Below, in pieces: positions 6,449 to 39,482 of a stretch of DNA of 44,003 bases. Source of the DNA: Myxococcales bacterium (GTDB taxonomy: Bacteria; Myxococcota_A; UBA9042; JABWCM01; BTVJ01); contig BTVJ01000060.1 of the NCBI GenBank assembly GCA_045863395.1, forward strand, positions 1 to 44,003, in the 5' to 3' direction. The translations under genes and the position numbers were made by a program. Position 1 is the first letter of the stretch; each line of letters begins with the position of its first letter. The notes beneath the pieces are model-generated. The model worked only from the letters and a program-made list of their open reading frames with translations, had not been told where the DNA came from and made no database searches.

Positions 6449-8155
6449 TTGGTCACGCAGTCACCAGCCCCAGGCACGCACCCTCCAACCTCTCCCGGTT
6501 CACCCCCGGGCTCGCCGTCGCAGCTCGCCGTGATGGCACCGGCCAGCCCGGAGCTGGTGGCGGCGGCTCGGCGGGCGCGCCGGGCGCGGGCGACCATTGC
6601 GCGCGGCGACATCAACGAGTTCATCCACTTCGTGATGCGGGACCAGCAGACGGGGGCGCCTCTGCTGCAGCAGCCGATGCACGAGGAGTGGCATGCGCTC
6701 GCCGATGAGCACCAGAGGTTGGTGGTCTGGGGGCACGCGGAGAGCGGGAAGTCGCAGCAGATGGCCATCGGACGCATCCTGTTCGCGCTCGGGCAGAACC
6801 CGCGGCTGCGGTGCGCCATCATCTCGAACACGTCGGGCCCGAAGGGGCAGGCAACGAAGCTGCTGCGGTCGGTGGCGCAGTACATCGAGAGTTCGTCGGA
6901 GCTGCACGAGGTGTTCCCGGAGCTGCAGCCGTCGCCGCGGAAGTCGGACCCGTGGACGACGGAGGCGATCACGGTGGAGCGGCCGCCTGGGATCAACGAC
7001 CCGAGCGTGCAGCAGTGTGGGGCCTTCGGGTCCATCCTAGGCAGCCGCATCGACTTCCTCGTGGTGGATGACCTGCTCGACTGGACGAACACGCTGACGG
7101 AGCACCGGCGCAAGGCGGTGATCGGCTGGTTCCAGGCGAGCGTGTTGTCGCGCATGACGACGCGGAGCCGGGCCATCGTCATCGGCAACGCCTGGCACCC
7201 GGACGACCTGATGCACGTGCTGGAGCGACGTGGCTGGACCGCGCTGCGCTACCCGGTGCTGGACCCGAGCGGCGCCTCCAAGTGGCCTGAGCAGTGGCCG
7301 GAGGAGCGCATCGAGGCGAAGCGAATCGAACTGGGTCCGCTGGAGTTCGCGCGGCAGATGATGTGCTTGCCGCGCTCCGACGAGGACGCGCGCTTTCGGC
7401 GGGAGTGGATCGACCAGTGCATCGAGCGCGGCGAAGGCCTCGACCTGGTCGGCTCCGACGCGGAGGCCAGGCTGCCTGATGGCAGCGAGATCTGGACGGG
7501 CGTCGACCTTGCTGTCGGGCGCGACAAGAGCAAGAAGCACGCGAAGTCCGTGGTGTTCACCATCGCGATCCTGCCGGACAAGCTGCGGTCCCGTCGCGTG
7601 CTCGCCATCGAGGCCGGTCGCTGGACGGGGCCCGAGATCGTGGCGCGCATCCAGGCTGCGCACCAGGCGTTCGGGTCCATCGTGCAGGTCGAGAGCAACG
7701 CGGCGCAGCAGTACATCGTGGACTTCACGAAGGCGGAGGCGCGGATCCCCGTCCGGTCGTTCCACACGGGTCGCAACAAGCACGACCCCACCTACGGCGT
7801 CGAGAGCATCGCGGTCGAGATGTCGCGCGGGCAGTGGATCATCCCGAACCACACCGGGCAGTGCCACCCGGAGGTGCAGGCATGGATCGCGGACATGCTC
7901 TACTACCACCCCGAGTCCCACACCGGTGACTACCTGATGGCCTGCTGGATCGCGCGCGAGGGGGCGGACAAGGGCAAGCGGGCGTTCGCGTACCGGGTGG
8001 GGGCGGTGGACGACGGGTCGGAGGGGCTGTGGGACATCGATGGGGGCGGCGATGGCGCGGACCGATCCTGGAGGAGCCGAAGCCAGGAGGACGTTCAGGG
8101 GCAGGAGCTCTGGGGTGGCTTCGACTTCGACGAGCACGACGACTTCGGGGGCTGA
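6449..8155 (+). CDS. terL: Terminase large subunit
   Basis: Walker A GHAESGKS, Walker B GSRIDFLVVDD, IVIGNAWHPDD coupling motif, nuclease GVDLA, VESNAAQ and GDYLMA; GAGGAGG before the TTG start. Confidence 0.93.
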   Translation: MVTQSPAPGTHPPTSPGSPPGSPSQLAVMAPASPELVAAARRARRARATIARGDINEFIHFVMRDQQTGAPLLQQPMHEEWHALADEHQRLVVWGHAESGKSQQMAIGRILFALGQNPRLRCAIISNTSGPKGQATKLLRSVAQYIESSSELHEVFPELQPSPRKSDPWTTEAITVERPPGINDPSVQQCGAFGSILGSRIDFLVVDDLLDWTNTLTEHRRKAVIGWFQASVLSRMTTRSRAIVIGNAWHPDDLMHVLERRGWTALRYPVLDPSGASKWPEQWPEERIEAKRIELGPLEFARQMMCLPRSDEDARFRREWIDQCIERGEGLDLVGSDAEARLPDGSEIWTGVDLAVGRDKSKKHAKSVVFTIAILPDKLRSRRVLAIEAGRWTGPEIVARIQAAHQAFGSIVQVESNAAQQYIVDFTKAEARIPVRSFHTGRNKHDPTYGVESIAVEMSRGQWIIPNHTGQCHPEVQAWIADMLYYHPESHTGDYLMACWIAREGADKGKRAFAYRVGAVDDGSEGLWDIDGGGDGADRSWRSRSQEDVQGQELWGGFDFDEHDDFGG

Positions 8156-8181
8156 CGGCACCTGACGGCACCTGACAGCAC
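8152..8181. repeat. 10-bp tandem repeat CTGAC(G/A)GCAC x3 at the terL stop codon
   Basis: ctgacggcac ctgacggcac ctgacagcac. Confidence 0.75.
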
Positions 8182-8263
8182 CACAGCCACGCCACGGAGC
8201 GTCCCCCTTGCGCTCGATGGAGATGTCGGGGTACGCTCGTGACGTGACAATATGAGGTGCCCT

Positions 8264-8575
8264 ATGAGCTGGCCAGTCAAGGAAGCGGGACCCTTCGAAG
8301 AGATCAGCGGCGAGGTGGTCCTCGACTACCACACGCTCGGCTACCACCCCGGCGTCGTGTTCCGGGCTCACGAATTCCACTTCACCAACCTGGGCGCCGG
8401 GACGGCGAGCGTCTACGTCTGGGGGGCTGGCGGCGACTGGTCTGCGCACGGCAGCCCCGTGACCAACAACAGCGTGGTGCAGCTCGAAGGTGCGTCCCCA
8501 CGCTTCCGCTTCGTCTTCGCGGGCACCGGCGGCGCTGGCAAGGTCAGCGTCCGCAGCACGGCCCGCGGGTTCTGA
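8264..8575 (+). CDS. Small beta-rich hypothetical protein, possibly a virion protein
   Basis: GAGGT before ATG 8264, strong codon bias, located between terL and portal. Confidence 0.7.
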   Translation: MSWPVKEAGPFEEISGEVVLDYHTLGYHPGVVFRAHEFHFTNLGAGTASVYVWGAGGDWSAHGSPVTNNSVVQLEGASPRFRFVFAGTGGAGKVSVRSTARGF

Positions 8576-8584
8576 GGCGCGGCG

Positions 8585-10708
8585 GTGGCGGCGCTCTGCG
8601 AGCCGGGGCCCTTCACGCGGCTGCTGCACGACAGCGGCCTGCTCGGGGCCCTCCGCAAGGCCGAGGAGGATGGCAGCCGCGGCGCAGTCGGACCGCGAAG
8701 GGAGGCTGCCGGCCATCCGCGGCCGCAGCGCCCGGGGCCGTACATCGGGCCTCGGGGCGGTAAGTGGGCGGATCCAGAGCACACGATCCCATGGAAGCCT
8801 TCACAGGTGGACGATGGCGTCGCACTCGATGATGACGCCGATCCGAGTGAAGAACCAGGTTGCTCAGTACTGGTGACCGGATCTGAACCGCTCGGGCCCG
8901 TGAAGGCCCACATGACGGAGGACGAGGTACGCGAGGCCATCGGCGGGTGGCACGAGGAAATCGGCGTCATTTTTGGCCAAGACGGGAAGCAGCTTGCGCG
9001 AGCTACCAGCGGATCCAAGAGGAGGATTCGGTTCGACAAGGAGTCCATGACGAAGCTGCGAGACGTGGTGAAGGCCAATGGGTCTGTGAAGTTCCTGCAC
9101 AACCATCCATCCGGCCTGATGCTCTCGGGTGGAGACGTCGCGTTTGCTGTGAAGCTGAACATCCATGCCATCGAGAGCTGCAATCGCTTTGGAGATCAGT
9201 GGTGGGTGGAGCGTCCCAGGGACGGATGGACACCGCAAGCGGCGCTCAAGGGTGCACTGTTCCAGGTGGTCCGGGAGGAGGAGCGGGTCTCCTTCAACCG
9301 CGAGCGAGGGCTTGGCGGTGTTGCCGGCAAAGACTTCGTGCAGTACACTCAAGCAGAGGTGCTGGAACTCAACCGGCGAATCTCGGAGAAGGCCAAGAGC
9401 GATGACTGTCACGGACCACCACACTTTGCCGTCCGACATGCACCTGGGGTTGGTGTGCGGCGAGGACGGCTCCATGACGCTCGACGACGAGACTCCGCTG
9501 GATCGATACCCAGAGCTGGACACGGCGGAGAAGGCACTCAAGTTTCTCGCCGAGCGCAAGGCCAAGCTCAAGGAGATGCTGTCGGAAGTGGAGGCGACCG
9601 AGGCAAAGAACGTCCGCTAGACCGGCTCCGTCGCCTCCTCAGCCGCGAGAAGGGCGACGACATCAAGAAGGCTCAAGAGTTTCCCGACCTCCCGAACCCG
9701 CTCACCTTCACCGCTCTCCTCGAGCAGCTCAGAGCGAACGGCATCCTGGCTGAGGCATCCTCCGAGGGCCAGCAGGCCGCCGAGCAGGCCCCATCTGACA
9801 CCGCCGCCGGCTCGGCGACGCGCACCCGCCAGCACATCCCCCACAGCGCCCACCCGGTGAAGCTCGGTCCCCCGCCTGAGCCCAACCGGGCCGAGCACCC
9901 CTTCGTTGGCACCATCGAGTTCCAGGGGCTCGTCGTCGACGTCGAGAACAGGAAGGGCTCCTACCGCTCGGGCAAGAACGCCGACGGCACGCCATGGCGC
10001 GTGAAGATGCTCGCCCACTACGGGGAGATCCGTGGCACCGAGGGGACTGACGGGGACCCGCTCGACGCCTACGTAGGGGACAACGCCGACAGCAGCCTCG
10101 TCGTGGTCGTGCATCAGCGCGACCCCGAGACCAGGGAGTACGACGAGGACAAGGTGATGCTGGGCTTCGACTCGGCGGACGACGCCGTGCGCCTCTACCG
10201 GCGGCAGTATGACCGGCCCGGCTTCTACGAGAGCCACACCACCATGCCCATCGGCCAGCTCTGGCGATGGGTCCGCGACGAGCGCAACCACGGCCGCAAG
10301 GTCGTGAAGAAGGGAAGGACCATGAGCGACAACGTCATCAGCCTCCAGACCTGGACGGACCAGGTGCTCCAGAAGGGCAAGACCAACCTCGAGGATGCGG
10401 TCATCGAGGCGGAGCTTCGCAACGCGCTGCGACGGCACCTGCGCTGGAGGGAGGACACGCACAGCCCGGAGGTGTGCGCTCGACACTGCGCTGACGAGGT
10501 GATCACGCAGTATGCGATGCTGGACGCGACGAAGGTGATGCTGGCGAGCTACCTCGACCGGCGGGGGCCCGACGGCCTCTACGTGCAGGCCCTGGTGAGC
10601 CATCCCGCGATGGCGGCCGAGGTCCAGTCGGCGCGGGAGGCCATGGCGGCGCGCGCGCTGCTGGAGACCCACGGGCCGCAGTCGGCCTACGCCGTCAACG
10701 GGTACTGA
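8585..10708 (+). CDS. Multidomain putative head-packaged effector: shared leader + JAB/MPN domain + InPase-like domain
   Basis: Leader CEPGPFTRLLHDSG and GPYIGPRGGKWADPE; JAB motif E...HNHPSGLMLSGGD (about 8950-9260); FQGLVVDVEN.KGS.RSG...HYGEIRGTEGTDGDPLDAYVG...DEDKVMLGF resembles the phage inorganic-pyrophosphatase-like domain (about 9900-10290). Confidence 0.8.
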   Translation: MAALCEPGPFTRLLHDSGLLGALRKAEEDGSRGAVGPRREAAGHPRPQRPGPYIGPRGGKWADPEHTIPWKPSQVDDGVALDDDADPSEEPGCSVLVTGSEPLGPVKAHMTEDEVREAIGGWHEEIGVIFGQDGKQLARATSGSKRRIRFDKESMTKLRDVVKANGSVKFLHNHPSGLMLSGGDVAFAVKLNIHAIESCNRFGDQWWVERPRDGWTPQAALKGALFQVVREEERVSFNRERGLGGVAGKDFVQYTQAEVLELNRRISEKAKSDDCHGPPHFAVRHAPGVGVRRGRLHDARRRDSAGSIPRAGHGGEGTQVSRRAQGQAQGDAVGSGGDRGKERPLDRLRRLLSREKGDDIKKAQEFPDLPNPLTFTALLEQLRANGILAEASSEGQQAAEQAPSDTAAGSATRTRQHIPHSAHPVKLGPPPEPNRAEHPFVGTIEFQGLVVDVENRKGSYRSGKNADGTPWRVKMLAHYGEIRGTEGTDGDPLDAYVGDNADSSLVVVVHQRDPETREYDEDKVMLGFDSADDAVRLYRRQYDRPGFYESHTTMPIGQLWRWVRDERNHGRKVVKKGRTMSDNVISLQTWTDQVLQKGKTNLEDAVIEAELRNALRRHLRWREDTHSPEVCARHCADEVITQYAMLDATKVMLASYLDRRGPDGLYVQALVSHPAMAAEVQSAREAMAARALLETHGPQSAYAVNGY
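9402..9620 (+). CDS. Nested 72-aa gene in the +1 frame of the 8585 ORF (candidate partner/immunity protein)
   Basis: GGAGAAGG at 9385-9392, ATG 9402, TAG 9618-9620; third positions mostly G/C in this frame but not in the enclosing frame. Confidence 0.65.
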   Translation: MTVTDHHTLPSDMHLGLVCGEDGSMTLDDETPLDRYPELDTAEKALKFLAERKAKLKEMLSEVEATEAKNVR

Positions 10709-10724
10709 GCCCGAGGAGCAGCAG

Positions 10725-12338
10725 GTGGGCTGGATCCAGGATCTCTTCGAGAGGCGCAAGACGAAGCTGCAGAAGGCCGCGGAGACGACCGCGCCTGCTG
10801 TGCAGGCAGAGTCCACTCCGGCGCCCAAGGCGTGGGCCTTCGACCCGCAGCAGATGGCGTTCGTGTACGCCAGCGACGTGCCGACGGAGACGCACCCGGG
10901 CACCCTCGGTCTGCCCTACAGCACGCTCCTGGCCATGTCGCGGGTCCCGATCTTCGCGACGATCATCCAGACCCGCGTGAACCAGATGGCGGAGTTCTTC
11001 GTGCCGCGGTCGTCGCCGTACTCCGTGGGGTTCTGGGTTCGCCAGAGGGACCGCCAGGCAAAGCCGACCCCGGCGTCGCGACGGCGGGCGGCGGAGATCG
11101 AAGCGATGCTGCTGAGCGCGGGGGGGCGTCACGGCTACGGGGGGCTCGAACCGTCGGTGCGCGCGCTCGTGCGGGACGCGTTCATCTACGACCAGGCGAA
11201 CTTCGAGGTGCTCCGCACGCGTGGCGGGAAGCCCTGTGGGTTCGTCCCGGTGGATGCTGCCACGATCCGCCGGGCGCGTCCGTCGCGCGCGGCGCTGGAC
11301 GCCGGGCGTTGGGACCCGGAGCAGGCAGCCTACGTCCAGGTGGTCAACCAGCGCATCGTCAACGAGTACGGTCACGAGGAGATGGCCTGGGGCATCCGGC
11401 GGCCACGGACCTGGCTGTACGCGTCCGGCTACGGATACCCGGAGCTGGAAGAGCTGGTGCGCGTCACGACGAACCTGCTCAACGCCGACACCTACAACGC
11501 GACCAACTTCACCAACGGCATCCACGCGAGCACCATCCTGGCGGTGAAGAGCGCCATGGACCGCCCCATGTTCGAGTCGTTCCGCCGGAACCTCCAGGCG
11601 ATGATGACGGGGCCCCGCAACGCCAAGAAGACGCCCGTCGTGCAGCTCGACCCGAGCAACGACGCCAAGGAGGAGATCCAGGCGATCAACCTCTCGAGCA
11701 CGAACAAGGACATGGAGTTCTCGAACTGGCAGAACTACCTGATCAAGATGGCCCACGCGGTCTTCCAGATGGATGCGGCCGAGAACGGGTGGGTCTACGG
11801 CAATGAGGGTCAGAGCGGCAGCACCTTGAACCAGCGGGGGCCGTCTGAGCGGATCGACGCGAGCAAGGCGCGTGGCCTCCGGCCCGCCATCCGGTCGGTT
11901 CAGGGGTGGTTCAATGAGTGGCTGGTCTACCCCTACGACCCGGACTTCATGCTCGAACTGTCCGGCTACGACAGCATCACGGAGGCCGACAAGTTGGAGC
12001 TCGACGCCAAGAGCCTCAAGGCCTTCAAGACGGTCGACGAGGTCCGGGCGGAGCACGAGCTGCCGCCCATCGGCGGGGTTGCCGGGAACATGATCCTCGA
12101 CGCCGTGTACGCCCAGGCCTACCTGAAGCAGGACGCCGATGACGCTGCTGGCGATGACGACCCGCTTGGGGGCTACCTGGGGCAGGACATCGACGAGATG
12201 ACCATGAGCCTGGGCGCTGGGGTCGAGCAGCGTGTCAAGGACGGACGCCTGCTCACCAAGGGGCGCGGGCCTCGCGGGCGCTGGGTGCCCGTGCGGTCCG
12301 GGCAAGGGGTGCGCAGCTTCGTGGTCGAGGTGGACTGA
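10725..12338 (+). CDS. Portal protein
   Basis: IIQTRVNQ, FVPVDAATIR, GYGYPELE, DMEF..W..YLI and SKARGLRP motifs of SPO1/Twort-like portals; position after terL. Confidence 0.9.
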   Translation: MGWIQDLFERRKTKLQKAAETTAPAVQAESTPAPKAWAFDPQQMAFVYASDVPTETHPGTLGLPYSTLLAMSRVPIFATIIQTRVNQMAEFFVPRSSPYSVGFWVRQRDRQAKPTPASRRRAAEIEAMLLSAGGRHGYGGLEPSVRALVRDAFIYDQANFEVLRTRGGKPCGFVPVDAATIRRARPSRAALDAGRWDPEQAAYVQVVNQRIVNEYGHEEMAWGIRRPRTWLYASGYGYPELEELVRVTTNLLNADTYNATNFTNGIHASTILAVKSAMDRPMFESFRRNLQAMMTGPRNAKKTPVVQLDPSNDAKEEIQAINLSSTNKDMEFSNWQNYLIKMAHAVFQMDAAENGWVYGNEGQSGSTLNQRGPSERIDASKARGLRPAIRSVQGWFNEWLVYPYDPDFMLELSGYDSITEADKLELDAKSLKAFKTVDEVRAEHELPPIGGVAGNMILDAVYAQAYLKQDADDAAGDDDPLGGYLGQDIDEMTMSLGAGVEQRVKDGRLLTKGRGPRGRWVPVRSGQGVRSFVVEVD

Positions 12339-14280: not shown

Positions 14281-15057
14281 ATGGCGAGCCTGACCCCACA
14301 CGTGATGCACCTCTGGGCCCCCTTCGACCTCGTCGAGAAGGGGGGCGAGGGCGAGGGTGCAGTCAAGCTCGGCCGGATCAAGGGCATCGCGTCGAGCGAG
14401 ACCCAGGATGCGGACGGCGAGGTCGTGGACCAGGCGGGCATCGACTGGAGCTTCTTCAAGTCCCATGGGAGAGGGGCGGTGACCCTCGAGCATCCGGTCG
14501 GCGTCTTCAACCTCATCGGCGAGGGCGTGGACGTGCGCCTCATCGACCTCGACGGCATACCGGCGACCGAGCTGGAGGCGGACCTCATCCTTACCGACCC
14601 CATCGGCCAAGCGGTCTGGGAGAAGGGGCGGGCCCTCAAGAAGGCAGGAGCCAGGACGAAGCTCGGGTTCAGCGTCGAGGGGCAGTGGCTCGAGAAGAAG
14701 GGCAACCGCATTACCAAGTCTCGGGTGACCTCCGTTGCCGTCAGTGCGGCGCCGAAGAACCCCCACACCTGGTGGGAGCCGATGGCGGCGTCCCTCCTGG
14801 CCGCGTTTCGCGGCGCTGCGGATCCTCGCGCGCTGTGGCGCGCCGAGGGCGTCGGCTACCCGGCCCAGGGGCAGGTCGTGACCGGCGGCCTCGCAGCCCT
14901 CGTCCCCCAGAGCATGCAAGGGTTCGACCCGAGGCTCCTCGAGGAGCTCACGAACGATGACCTGCTCGTGACCCGGGTGCTGCGGCAGTTGCCGCAGCTC
15001 TCCTGGTCTCAGGGCCAGAGCTTGATCGCGGACCTCCGCACCCGGATGGACGCCTGA
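14281..15057 (+). CDS. Prohead (maturation) protease
   Basis: IKGIASSETQDADGEVV, TLEH (His), GFSVEG (Ser) and VAVSAAPKNPHT motifs of HK97/herpes-fold proteases. Confidence 0.9.
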   Translation: MASLTPHVMHLWAPFDLVEKGGEGEGAVKLGRIKGIASSETQDADGEVVDQAGIDWSFFKSHGRGAVTLEHPVGVFNLIGEGVDVRLIDLDGIPATELEADLILTDPIGQAVWEKGRALKKAGARTKLGFSVEGQWLEKKGNRITKSRVTSVAVSAAPKNPHTWWEPMAASLLAAFRGAADPRALWRAEGVGYPAQGQVVTGGLAALVPQSMQGFDPRLLEELTNDDLLVTRVLRQLPQLSWSQGQSLIADLRTRMDA

Positions 15058-15071
15058 CGCGAGGGAGAGAG

Positions 15072-15773
15072 ATGAAGGCGAGCGAGCTGCGCAAGAGTCT
15101 GACGGACGCCAAGATCGCGACCGTCGAGATCGACCGGATGGTCGGGGCCCAGGTGGCCGCCGGGGCCATCGAGAACGACGAGGCTCCGGCGCCTTCGAGC
15201 CCCGTGAGCGACGAGCTGTTCAAGGCCGTGGACGCCGCGACCAACCAGCTTCGCAAGAGCATGGATGGAAGCCCCGCGGCTTCGCCGCAGCCGGCCGATG
15301 TCAGCCAGGCGCCCAAGGACGTCTCGGGCGGCGACATGAGCAAGGCCGTGGACGTCTTCGCCAAGGGAGCCGACGCCATCCTCCAGCAGGTGGGCGACCA
15401 GCACCGCACCCTCGCCGGCGGGTACCTGGCGCTGGGGCAGCTCAACCAGGCGATGGCGAAGGCGCTGACCGAGCAGGGTGAGCGCCTGGCCGCCCAGGAC
15501 GCGAAGCTCGACACCATCCTCAAGGCGCTGAGCCAGCCGGTTCCGCTTCGCTCCGTGACGGGGCTGACCACTGCGGTCCCGGCGCCTGGGGAGACGCCGA
15601 CGGGGCCCGCAAAGAGCACCCACGCAGCGGTCCTGCAGAAGGCGATGGGCGAGATGCAGAACCCTTCGACCACCATGGACCGCAGGCGTCAGCTCGCCTC
15701 GGCGGTGGCGCTGCTCGACTCCCACGGCGATCCCGCTGAGATCGCCGCCAGCTTCGGTATCACGGTCGGCTGA
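15072..15773 (+). CDS. Putative scaffolding protein
   Basis: Lies between protease and capsid, helical, with repeated ELRKS/ELFKA/QLRKS/DMSKA/VFAKG/AMAKA/TILKA/VLQKA motifs. Confidence 0.7.
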   Translation: MKASELRKSLTDAKIATVEIDRMVGAQVAAGAIENDEAPAPSSPVSDELFKAVDAATNQLRKSMDGSPAASPQPADVSQAPKDVSGGDMSKAVDVFAKGADAILQQVGDQHRTLAGGYLALGQLNQAMAKALTEQGERLAAQDAKLDTILKALSQPVPLRSVTGLTTAVPAPGETPTGPAKSTHAAVLQKAMGEMQNPSTTMDRRRQLASAVALLDSHGDPAEIAASFGITVG

Positions 15774-32947: not shown

Positions 32948-33610
32948 ATGATGGCGGACATGGGCACTCCGAACCACACCTGCACACCGGAGCCGGGCCC
33001 CTTCACCCGGCTCCTGCATGACAGCGGGATGCTCGATCTGCTGACCCACACGGAGGGGGCGGTCCCGCCACAGCCTGCGCAAATCGAAGGGCCCTTTGCG
33101 CGTCTCCTGCGGGAGCTCGCGTTGGAGAAGGGCAAGGGCAAGGACGACGGCAAGGGCACGCCGTACAACCGGCACCGTGGGCGGCTCCGTCGGGAGGGGG
33201 TGGTCTACGAAGGGCCGCGAGGAGGGCGGTACGCCGACCCGGAGCGCAAGATCTCGCTCAAGCGCAACGAGGGCGAGGCGAAGGAGCGTTCCGAGGCGGG
33301 GTCCAGGCCGGACCCGAAGGGGCCCCACGACTCTGTGTCCAAGCACGATCCCGAGCAAAGGCCGGACCAGTGGAAGCTCGGCTCCCACAAGTCGGTCACC
33401 ACGTGGCGCAATCAGATGGCGAAGCGAGGCTGGACGCCCAGGCAGATCGCAGAAGCCATATACATGGGTGAACGGTCTCCCGCGGCAAACAAGGTCAACA
33501 AGGGCAACTCGGCCTCTCGCTACGTGCATCCGACGACGGGAAGGCGGGTCATCGTCGATGATGTCACCCAGGAGGTGCTCCATGTCTCAGCCGAAGCATT
33601 CCAAGAGTGA
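32948..33610 (+). CDS. Shared-leader effector with C-terminal colicin E5-like ribonuclease domain
   Basis: Leader EPGPFTRLLHDSG, LALEKG and GPRGGRYADPE; C-terminus NQMAKRGWTPRQI...A.RY...VIVDDVTQEVLHVS aligns by eye with colicin E5 QMPERGWT...ATVY...VVVNDRTGEVTQIS. Confidence 0.75.
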   Translation: MMADMGTPNHTCTPEPGPFTRLLHDSGMLDLLTHTEGAVPPQPAQIEGPFARLLRELALEKGKGKDDGKGTPYNRHRGRLRREGVVYEGPRGGRYADPERKISLKRNEGEAKERSEAGSRPDPKGPHDSVSKHDPEQRPDQWKLGSHKSVTTWRNQMAKRGWTPRQIAEAIYMGERSPAANKVNKGNSASRYVHPTTGRRVIVDDVTQEVLHVSAEAFQE

Positions 33611-33887
33611 GAGCGTCATCGTGTACGTGCAGCTTCTGAACGAGGGGACCGAGGTCTATCGGCCCGCCTTGGCAGCGCCTACCAGTCCGACCACGGCTAC
33701 CATCTTGGTGCCGAAGAACTATGATCCTGAGGACGAAGAGTGGGAGTTCAAGCCAGGCACGATGGTTCGGCTCGAACTCCGGAAGTTGGGTGGCGAGAAG
33801 GACTACCACTGGAAGTACGGCTATATCTCGGGCCCCTTCGTGTGGGTCATGGTCGCCGTCGCCGATGTGAAGGAGCCGCGAGGGTGA
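33582..33887 (+). CDS. Putative immunity protein for the E5-like toxin
   Basis: AGGAGG at 33570-33575, ATG 33582, overlaps the toxin 3' end by 29 nt; acidic core VYVQLLNEGTEVYRP...YDPEDEEWEFKPG. Confidence 0.65.
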   Translation: MSQPKHSKSESVIVYVQLLNEGTEVYRPALAAPTSPTTATILVPKNYDPEDEEWEFKPGTMVRLELRKLGGEKDYHWKYGYISGPFVWVMVAVADVKEPRG

Positions 33888-38186: not shown

Positions 38187-39482
38187 GTGATCATGAAGTG
38201 CGAGCCTGGGCCCTTCACGCGGCTCCTGCACGAGAGTGGGCTGCTCGAGGCCATCCGGCGCAGGGAGATCGCTACGCTCGCGAAGGGCACGGCCGCCCCT
38301 GCCGACCCCGTAGAGGACCCGCTCGTGCGCATCGTCCGCGAGGCCATCTTGCGCGAGCTGCGGAAGGGTCGGGGTGGATCCGAGAGCGACGAAGTCGGCA
38401 GGCGTCGAGAGCACCATGGGCCCTACCTGGGACCGCGGGGTGGGAAGTACGCCGATCCGGAACTTACGCGCTCGTGGAAGGAACCTGATTCCTTGGTGCG
38501 AATGTCTGCCACGGACCAGAAGTCGTCGGACGAAGCTGGGGAGGACGATCTTCCTCCCCCCGTCTTTGCCATGCGCGGCGACATGACACCTGTTGGTCCG
38601 GTTACGGCTGACATGAACCGCACGCAAGTAGAACGGGTGATCTGCTCCAGCGATGTCGAAATCGTCGTCGCCTTCGACTCGAAGGGCAAGCAGATATTTC
38701 GGGCGACCAACAACGATCCGTGGAGCTGCGAGTTCGATACCGATTGGATCGATGCGGAAGTTGAGGATCTGGTTCACAATCACCCGACTGGGTCGTGCCC
38801 ATCGCCTGGAGACATTCTCGCACAGATCCAGGTCCACGCGAAACGACACCGTGTGGTCGTAAGTGTTGACAACGGCAACGGCAAGGTACTGACGAGGGTG
38901 TGGGTGGTCCATTGCCCGCCTGGAAGTATCGAGGATTGGATGGCGCCGCTTACGAAGGCAGAGGAACTGGCGCGCCGCACGGCGAGCGGAAGAGCTGCGG
39001 AGACCGCAGGCGTTCGCGGGGTTCGGAACCTGGAACGGTGGAAGAGAGCCCATCCTCGTGAGTGGGTCGCCACCTTGAACGTTCACATGCTTCGAAACTA
39101 TACTGCCCTGGGGCTGACGATCACGGAGGAGGCCCATGAGTCCATCAAAGAGGGACAGCCGCATCCGGCTGAGCAGCAAGTGGATTTTCCATCCCACTCC
39201 TTTGCCGACGCCGAAGCAAGCGCGCCTGGAGCGGGAAGCCTTCGAGGAGATGGCTGCCAAGCACCGCAAGTGGCTCGAGGACCGAGCCAAGGCGGCGAAG
39301 ACGGAAGCCGTGGGGAATTCGAAGGCCCCCTGACCCGCCTCGTCCGCTCCTGCTTCCGCAAGGCGACTCCGCCCGACCCCTCGGAGCTCCCGACCCCTCT
39401 CACGTTCACCGCCATCTTCGAGCAGCTCCGGGCCCAGGGCATCCTGCCCCAGGGCGGAGCCTCGTCACGCAGCGCGAGGTAG
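38187..39482 (+). CDS. Shared-leader effector with JAB/MPN domain (paralog of the 8585 N-terminal half)
   Basis: CEPGPFTRLLHESG, ELRKG, GPYLGPRGGKYADPE; E...HNHPTGSCPSPGD; C-terminal LPTPLTFTAIFEQLRAQGIL. The start may be ATG 38193. Confidence 0.8.
   Translation: MIMKCEPGPFTRLLHESGLLEAIRRREIATLAKGTAAPADPVEDPLVRIVREAILRELRKGRGGSESDEVGRRREHHGPYLGPRGGKYADPELTRSWKEPDSLVRMSATDQKSSDEAGEDDLPPPVFAMRGDMTPVGPVTADMNRTQVERVICSSDVEIVVAFDSKGKQIFRATNNDPWSCEFDTDWIDAEVEDLVHNHPTGSCPSPGDILAQIQVHAKRHRVVVSVDNGNGKVLTRVWVVHCPPGSIEDWMAPLTKAEELARRTASGRAAETAGVRGVRNLERWKRAHPREWVATLNVHMLRNYTALGLTITEEAHESIKEGQPHPAEQQVDFPSHSFADAEASAPGAGSLRGDGCQAPQVARGPSQGGEDGSRGEFEGPLTRLVRSCFRKATPPDPSELPTPLTFTAIFEQLRAQGILPQGGASSRSAR
39136..39333 (+). 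CDS. Nested 65-aa gene in the +1 frame of the 38187 ORF (candidate partner/immunity protein)
   Basis: GGAGGAGG at 39125-39132, ATG 39136, TGA 39331-39333; GC3 bias favours this frame. Confidence 0.65.
   Translation: MSPSKRDSRIRLSSKWIFHPTPLPTPKQARLEREAFEEMAAKHRKWLEDRAKAAKTEAVGNSKAP

Follow-up and report, generated by a model that had tools for sequence, protein, structure and literature searches.

A small gene nested in a phage head-region gene is predicted to encode an inhibitor of the enclosing JAB enzyme

The locus and its genes

The DNA analysed here, called the window below, is a whole contig of 44,003 bases (C60, BTVJ01000060.1) from the 8.8 Mb, 71% GC assembly of a Myxococcales bacterium (GCA_045863395.1). 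It has no flanking host DNA and encodes a tailed phage, with terminase, portal, head protease, major head protein and sheath. Between terminase and portal, that is, in the head/packaging module, lies an open reading frame (ORF1) with a JAB/MPN enzyme domain, and wholly within ORF1, in its +1 frame, lies a small gene for a protein of 72 amino acids (aa), an architecture of the embedded Rz/Rz1 type. We describe this pair and the reading that the small protein is an inhibitor of the enzyme whose gene encloses it. The features of the locus, including Shine-Dalgarno (SD) sequences, are as follows.

8585..10708, + strand, enclosing gene ORF1, 707 aa, GTG start with GAGG 6 nucleotides (nt) upstream
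8597..8662, + strand, leader motif EPGPFTRLLHDSG, common to three window genes, ending in the putative protease site L-R-K-A, where the chain may be cleaved
8735..8797, + strand, GPxIGPRGGKWAD motif, which starts many units of related polyproteins
8894..9400, + strand, JAB/MPN domain with an intact metal site
9385..9392, + strand, GGAGAAGG, resembling a ribosome-binding site, 9 nt before the nested ATG
9401..9613, + strand, shadow linker, the same DNA as the nested gene read in the enclosing frame, R/G/A-rich, a putative linker
9402..9620, + strand, nested gene in the +1 frame of ORF 8585-10708, 72 aa, predicted JAB inhibitor
9614..9752, + strand, tail module with P-L-x-R-L, the putative site I-K-K-A (9662-9673) and a PLTFTA..EQLRA.GIL module
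9908..10273, + strand, InPase domain (PF18823, E 9.7e-38)
10322..10708, + strand, in-frame ATG with SD-like AAGGGAAGGA, directly after a V-K-K-G site

ORF1 thus runs from leader and GPxIGPRGGKWAD motif through JAB, overlap linker, conserved tail module and InPase to a final segment of 128 aa, and holds two conflict-related enzyme domains, JAB and InPase PF18823, in one chain. The InPase part matches minor head and virion structural families of PHROGs. The enclosing frame is stop-free from 8576 to 10706, and at both JAB loci of the window (the second is described below) no SD-led start was found in that frame between JAB and InPase. Because no stop follows the JAB domain and no SD-led start precedes the next conserved module, ORF1 appears to read through as a polyprotein, and from its sequence it is probably a head-region polyprotein of the phage. 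The stretch 10322-10708 was probably once a separate gene, fused in frame.

The JAB domain carries the metal-site residues E22, H69, H71, S78 and D81 (domain numbering) of the JAMM motif (E...HxH...SxxD), invariant in 25 of 25 aligned sequences. Its model (predicted local distance difference test, pLDDT, 86.2) has an MPN fold. The best fold match in the PDB is JAMM1 of P. furiosus (PDB 5ld9, 5lda), which it resembles in fold and metal motif (probability 1.00, E 2.4e-4) with a TM-score by query of only 0.43; RadC (2qlc) is also among the top matches, and the matches in a viral library are RadC-like and minor capsid proteins. A JAB profile matched RadC in the PDB at E 0.011. In a search with JAB-type Pfam families neither ORF1 nor ORF2, the second JAB gene, matched, and one of 14 relatives matched RadC at E 0.084; among cultured phages no JAB match was found. 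We consider nucleic acid and peptide targets about equally probable.

Coding signal and sequence integrity of the nested gene

The nested gene was first proposed in an earlier note made from the letters of this DNA alone. The elements it named, GGAGAAGG, an ATG at 9402 in the +1 frame and a 72-aa product, are all present, and the TAG (9618-9620) does fall inside the P-L-D codons (ccg cTA Gac), where the enclosing frame resumes conserved sequence. The claimed reversal in GC content at third codon positions (GC3) is equally clear: over 9402-9620 the nested frame has a GC3 of 0.86, the enclosing frame one of 0.36. Under a codon model trained on 2917 host genes, the +1 frame scores +120 bits over this stretch, a value reached by 0 of 8301 control windows of 73 codons from 27 other phage genes (control maximum 64). 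Among +1-frame ORFs of at least 60 aa with ATG and SD sequence inside other genes, a positive score was obtained by 0 of 7 in the phage and 21 of 357 in the host. The +1 frame is open since 9159 and has an extra ATG at 9165; the coding signal begins only at about 9400. The 72-aa protein is present as a called gene in the Atlas and in the protein collection, solely from this sequence. The caution of the earlier note that a shadow frame is often stop-free by chance proved justified, since, among 73-codon windows of real genes, the -1 shadow carries no stop in 0.67 of 22496 from the host and in 0.44 of 128 from the phage.

Frameshifts in the assembly, or an ORF open by chance, could mimic such nesting, and both the metagenomic origin of the assembly and the lack of a homolog of the 72-aa protein would fit this. 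A search for the indel that it would require gave none: three DNA runs, each from a separate study that is not marked as source, have contigs over this region, and no indel or substitution is listed in 9172-9904, with no single piece covering the whole gene. Pieces without any difference span 9172-9536 and 9508-10370 in run X6, 9199-9561 and 9543-9904 in run X9, and 9292-9491 and 9559-9889 in run X7. Together with the +120 bits and the layout repeated at the second locus, this largely refutes an artefact, which we regard as extremely improbable. Run X6 also has a contig with the flanks 8599-8797 and 9689-9748 in which another 900 bases stand where the window has 891, a difference that is a multiple of three (length alone is known here); this swapped cassette retains the frame and hence counts against a meaningless read-through. 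In one RNA run a single contig of 385 nt (9382-9766) spans the entire nested gene, which indicates presence only; the library may also contain DNA, and the contig is a weak hint of transcription.

A second JAB gene with the same layout

The layout recurs in the window among the tail genes.

38187..39482, + strand, second JAB gene (ORF2), 431 aa, with leader, motif and tail as in ORF1; JAB at about 38595-39134
39136..39333, + strand, second nested gene, +1 frame, 65 aa, strong SD sequence GGAGGAGG at 39125-39132, TGA within the P-L-T codons

The second nested gene scores +40 bits, equalled by 0.8% of 8490 control windows. At both loci the phase is the same and the nested stop lies in the same P-L-x-R-L codons, with different lengths of overlap. 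The tail module is common to both JAB genes, with identities by codon position over 9686-9752 of 17/23, 21/22 and 14/22. Between the two overlaps the corresponding identities are 20/37, 13/37 and 24/38, values that equal or only just exceed the 95th percentile for realigned shuffles. When the overlap translations of the two loci are compared, P is 0.002 for the enclosing frame and 0.079 for the nested frame, the frames not being independent.

The second locus also bears on the possibility that the +1 segment is reached by a programmed +1 frameshift, so that JAB would carry its own inhibitor as a C-terminal tail. The +1 frame open from 9159 would permit this, in two related viral contigs (L054 and L057, see below) the ATG stands 25-35 codons ahead of the coding signal, and in L071-L073 a similar-looking peptide is fused in frame. 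At both window loci, however, an SD sequence and an ATG stand exactly at the start of the coding signal, the second SD sequence is strong, and a stop at 39115 interrupts the +1 frame of locus 2 only 21 nt before ATG 39136. A frameshift is therefore very unlikely.

Predicted binding of the nested product to the JAB domain

Structure co-prediction, suggested in the earlier note as a check on a partner role, favoured a complex of the JAB domain and the 72-aa protein. The score was 0.87 and that of the best control 0.02, against a mark reached by 116 of 157 solved pairs and 2 of 215 mismatched pairs, a calibration that is only rough for a job with custom alignments, hand-picked partner rows and a zinc ion. 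At least 90% of contacts are shared between runs, and pLDDT for the partner is 77 or higher. The modelled contacts cover E22, H69, H71, S78 and D81, and binding at the active site had been predicted before modelling. A partner strand (residues 22-34) lies in the JAB cleft and pairs there, through residues 24-26, with JAB residues 45-47; a partner helix (39-67) packs on JAB helix 118-133. JAMM deubiquitinases bind the tail of their substrate as an added strand beside the metal, and the modelled partner strand appears similar. Resemblance to solved JAMM-substrate complexes might feed the score, though the partner alignment found no sequence match in the PDB. The model supports binding of the 72-aa protein across the JAB active site, and from this we infer that it may inhibit the enzyme and act as its immunity protein.

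A partner that binds JAB need not inhibit it, and the nested product might instead serve as folding chaperone, activator, substrate or adaptor. The modelled interface is large and includes a helix outside the active site, and the toxicity of JAB is itself presumed. In five related loci (L015, L059, L068, L075 and L080) the post-JAB peptide is the leader of the next virion polyprotein and could tether JAB for packaging. Against such roles, the modelled contacts take in all five catalytic residues, and small genes after phage head toxins have been argued to be immunity genes (PMC5576092). We judge these roles unlikely and retain inhibition as the preferred function.

A homolog search among proteins of 39-126 aa found only the 72-aa protein itself, there was no feature match in the Atlas and no structure match above TM 0.46, and no other copy was found in its own genome. 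A homolog search in 61 genomes returned only G000 plus one weak match. The ORF2 homolog search likewise returned only itself, and ORF2 and P0046 gave no viral locus; two pattern scans of viral contigs gave no stretch, and scanning metagenomes gave 8, none of them related. The best 20 of 475 matches of P0022 were all to its InPase part.

Recurrence in related phages

A profile of the two JAB genes matched 419 proteins at E <=0.001, among them 150 listed, which are long proteins of GPxIGPRGGKWAD-led units. The 33 fetched loci, which include some duplicates, hold 34 JAB matches, of which 29 are gene-terminal, 1 is cut by a contig end and 4 are internal. Most of the gene-terminal domains (26 of 29) stop 99-131 aa after HNHP, with either a small gene or the next polyprotein's leader directly behind. 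At the window loci the nested ATGs stand 101 and 120 codons after HNHP. The nested genes therefore start where a JAB gene usually ends and the next small gene begins, which supports the partner-gene reading.

Two unrelated viral contigs, L054 and L057, show the nested layout itself: JAB is internal, a +1 ORF covers the stretch behind it, GC3 flips (44/92 and 36/80), and hydrophobic-x-K sites lie nearby. A scan for +1 coding signal with the host-trained codon model, over 41 polyprotein ORFs (43,967 codons) in 24 loci of at least 58% GC, gave 17 peaks above 20 bits. All four post-JAB sites reach 35 bits or more, as does one further nested ORF, in L022, and no other peak exceeds 28; with locus-trained codon models the scan missed both window loci. 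The ORF in L022 (L022:3104-3445) has 113 aa and an SD-like sequence, is nested in a polyprotein frame of 2665 codons after L-Q-K-G, not after a JAB, and has no PHROG match. Among 149 database proteins, shadow-like sequence (p<0.05) follows 11 of 19 JABs in the 16 JAB-bearing proteins, about 1 being expected, in a sample biased by a profile that favours long motif-bearing proteins. Fifteen of the 16 were judged on protein composition; the remaining one, P0029, equals L054, has DNA, is among the 11 and served as positive control.

We also compared the nested products with the partners of gene-terminal JABs. A profile of 19 such partners ranked the left-out partner first in 7 of 19 cases. Many of these partners have a short run of hydrophobic residues followed by Asp-Asp and Pro-x-Tyr (hydrophobic-DD-x-E-x-x-P-x-Y), and the 72-aa protein looks alike by eye, a likeness that the statistics do not confirm.

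Other arrangements occur after JAB. In L071-L073 (L071:2200-2355) it is followed in frame by an SD sequence, an ATG and an acidic tail of 37 aa, possibly a partner fused in frame; in the folded L071 fusion the tail has a pLDDT below 50, which neither supports docking nor opposes it. In L015:6504, L059:3480, L068:3468, L075:3549 and L080:3464 the peptide that follows the JAB stop forms the N-terminal leader of the long protein encoded next and precedes a K-A/F-like junction and an HPRD/HRRD-type tag. In L036:3-566 a +1-frame ORF overlaps part of a helicase-like polyprotein; we take this ORF to resemble a DUF559-type endonuclease, and the overlapped stretch presumably resembles an intein.

Proposed mechanism and origin

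We assign a probability of roughly 70% to the reading that a JAB-inhibitor gene, placed there by gene fusion, lies nested in the linker of its own effector within a packaged and cleaved head polyprotein. That the window holds a partner gene within its own effector gene was the central proposal of the earlier note, and it is now backed by the absence of an indel in three runs, the layout repeated at locus 2 and in two unrelated viral contigs, the start at the usual JAB end and the complex model.

Cleavage of the polyprotein is suggested by recurring short sites and by a candidate enzyme.

14281..15057, + strand, head maturation protease (phrog_1028, E 7.8e-24), candidate enzyme for hydrophobic-x-K-[AGS] sites

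A hydrophobic-x-K-[AGS] site lies within 16 aa upstream of 280 of 306 GPxIGPRGGKWAD tags (background 9.6%). Such sites are frequent in scaffold, protease, capsid and portal, the scaffold-like gene at 15072-15773 having 8 in 233 aa, and are also seen in sheath and terminase. In Twort-like phages cleavage probably takes place after Lys. Internal proteins are cut by head proteases at short motifs (PMC10052503). From their distribution the hydrophobic-x-K-[AGS] sites are likely head-protease cut sites, and the GPxIGPRGGKWAD motif is a probable targeting or ejection tag. Repeats of a [ED]xP[LF]xR[LI][LV]R motif precede hydrophobic-x-K sites in leader-bearing genes.

The ORF1 product would be packed into the prohead and cut by the head protease after hydrophobic-x-Lys, and the pieces, among them the JAB enzyme and the pyrophosphatase, would be delivered to the next host. 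Both frames would be read from one mRNA region, the 72-aa product from its own +1 start. This product would stay in the producing cell, with its strand over the JAB metal site and its helix on JAB, keeping the enzyme off. The packaged JAB would keep a short shadow tail, and the shadow stretch may be a disposable linker up to the next cut site.

Ancestrally the arrangement may have been that of most relatives, in which JAB ends its gene and a small gene or leader peptide comes next. The JAB gene would then have been joined to the module behind it through translation of the partner gene's -1 shadow frame, which in GC-rich DNA is often stop-free. Loss of one base just before an ATGA stop-start overlap would suffice for nesting. 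ATGA is present at both window loci, its TGA lying in the third frame, and several relatives overlap JAB stop and next start as ATGA; as 6 of 22 phage starts have A after ATG, its presence at two of two loci is only suggestive.

The same one-base loss would also account for the layout if JAB, partner and downstream module were three separate genes and the JAB stop had been lost by a neutral or damaging mutation, the read-through product being irrelevant. Chance alone leaves the shadow frame open in about half of cases or more, and the ATG at 10322 shows that fused parts may retain their own starts. Separate genes are harder to reconcile with a conserved tail and an InPase that lack an SD-led start in their frame, with a phase that returns at the same motif at two loci of unequal overlap, and also in L054 and L057, and with a swapped cassette that stays in frame. 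We consider this explanation quite unlikely.

Several results weigh against a nested inhibitor gene with a disposable linker. The ribosome site of the 72-aa gene is modest, with GGAG 13 nt from the ATG and AAGG, at 9 nt, as its well-spaced part, and a scan of 8200-10900 for promoters found no sigma-70-like site. Shadow frames are so commonly open (44-70%) that the open enclosing frame alone is no evidence of read-through. The alignment of the two nested proteins is not significant (E 2.5), and the enclosing-frame overlaps are more alike than the nested ones, which fits poorly with a purely disposable linker. With the 19-partner profile neither nested ORF ranked in the top 12 of 585 window domains, nor did those of L054 and L057, and the summed pairwise similarity of the four nested ORFs to the partners of terminal JABs is weak (P 0.126, 0.073, 0.056 and 0.159). 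L077 has two internal JABs and no nested ORF, and 8 of 19 database JABs have no significant shadow stretch. The rough calibration of the complex score and the biased sample of database proteins, both given above, belong here too.

The arrangement would explain how an enzyme can sit in the middle of a polyprotein with its inhibitor kept adjacent. Since gene callers can keep only one of the two frames, such genes are likely to have been missed in many genomes. Short candidate inhibitors of the phage JAB family would make the nuclease-or-peptidase question for RadC-like JABs directly testable. More tentatively, and as a speculation that we think has rather less than an even chance, uncultured phages may build virion polyproteins from swappable dual-coding cassettes, each of an enzyme with its linker and a +1 active-site plug expressed alone in the resting lysogen. 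The plugs would be undescribed JAB inhibitors that mimic a substrate tail, JAB would be a peptidase, possibly acting against bacterial ubiquitin-like defences, and not a nuclease as has been proposed for RadC-like domains, and many polyproteins already annotated would conceal such nested genes, also behind domains other than JAB, as in L022.

Comparison with known systems

To our knowledge, fully nested genes whose products bind the product of the enclosing gene are rare. Spanins are the standard phage example of nested genes with interacting products. In the literature covered, mostly open-access main texts, we found no immunity-like gene nested in the polyprotein of its own effector, and these JABs or their partners may appear in the supplements of PMC3482391 and PMC5512222. 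By analogy, the arrangement would combine known kinds, resembling Rz/Rz1 in layout, MuF toxins in toxin-immunity logic and polyvalent proteins in the enclosing protein.

Rz/Rz1 genes occur side by side in embedded, overlapped and separated forms, and PMC6139136 discusses reading through a lost stop as a route. As in lambda Rz/Rz1 described there, a small +1 gene lies wholly inside a larger one over a flexible linker; the Rz/Rz1 products bind each other, whereas binding is modelled here. Spanins are membrane lysis proteins, unlike the putative effector enzyme and predicted inhibitor of the window, and ORF1 continues into further domains. Scans of the window proteins against protein-family libraries gave no match to a spanin family, and the context is a head module, so we do not class the pair as spanins.

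For MuF proteins, PMC5576092 reports an enzyme domain followed directly by a small ORF in 89.4% of 191 muf toxin genes. The window locus shares with these toxins its place in the head module and the small ORF directly after the enzyme domain. It differs from them in that ORF1 and ORF2 have no MuF domain match, the enzyme is internal and not C-terminal, and the small gene is nested and not downstream. InPase and RadC-like JAB are both listed among the domains of phage polyvalent proteins, which are thought to be packaged and injected (PMC5512222). ORF1 resembles them as a multi-domain protein with InPase and JAB, and differs from them, as they are described there, by the nested partner or inhibitor and the repeated units of cut site plus tag.

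Among polymorphic toxins, PMC3482391 pairs Tox-JAB-1 and Tox-JAB-2 with Imm65 and Imm-NTF2-2 and proposes nuclease activity. The window JAB is likewise a putative toxin with a neighbouring predicted immunity gene. Unlike these systems, it has no Pfam match to those clades and no RHS delivery, and its partner is a short strand-plus-helix protein without a family match. The case also differs from JAMM deubiquitinases such as P. furiosus JAMM1 in a partner that is not ubiquitin-like.

Other features of the window

The third leader-bearing gene lies, like ORF2, among the tail genes, and has a conventional neighbour.

32951..33610, + strand, ORF3, with leader and motif as in ORF1 and a colicin E5-like RNase domain (PF12106, E 3.2e-6) at its end, before a normal stop
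33582..33887, + strand, small +1-frame gene overlapping the ORF3 end

From its position, the gene at 33582-33887 is probably an immunity gene in the ordinary arrangement. The database protein P0083 is a variant of ORF3 in which the leader is kept and the toxin part has diverged. Besides that of ORF1, copies of the leader EPGPFTRLLHDSG lie at 32990-33040 and 38199-38257, and loose contig ends in runs X7 and X9 suggest more loci with this leader in related phages. At the terminase stop (8150-8180) there is a tandem repeat of three copies of about 11 nt, ctgacggcacc-like. Near the end of the window, 43374-43942 matches host contig C2:246755-247324 at 78% DNA identity.

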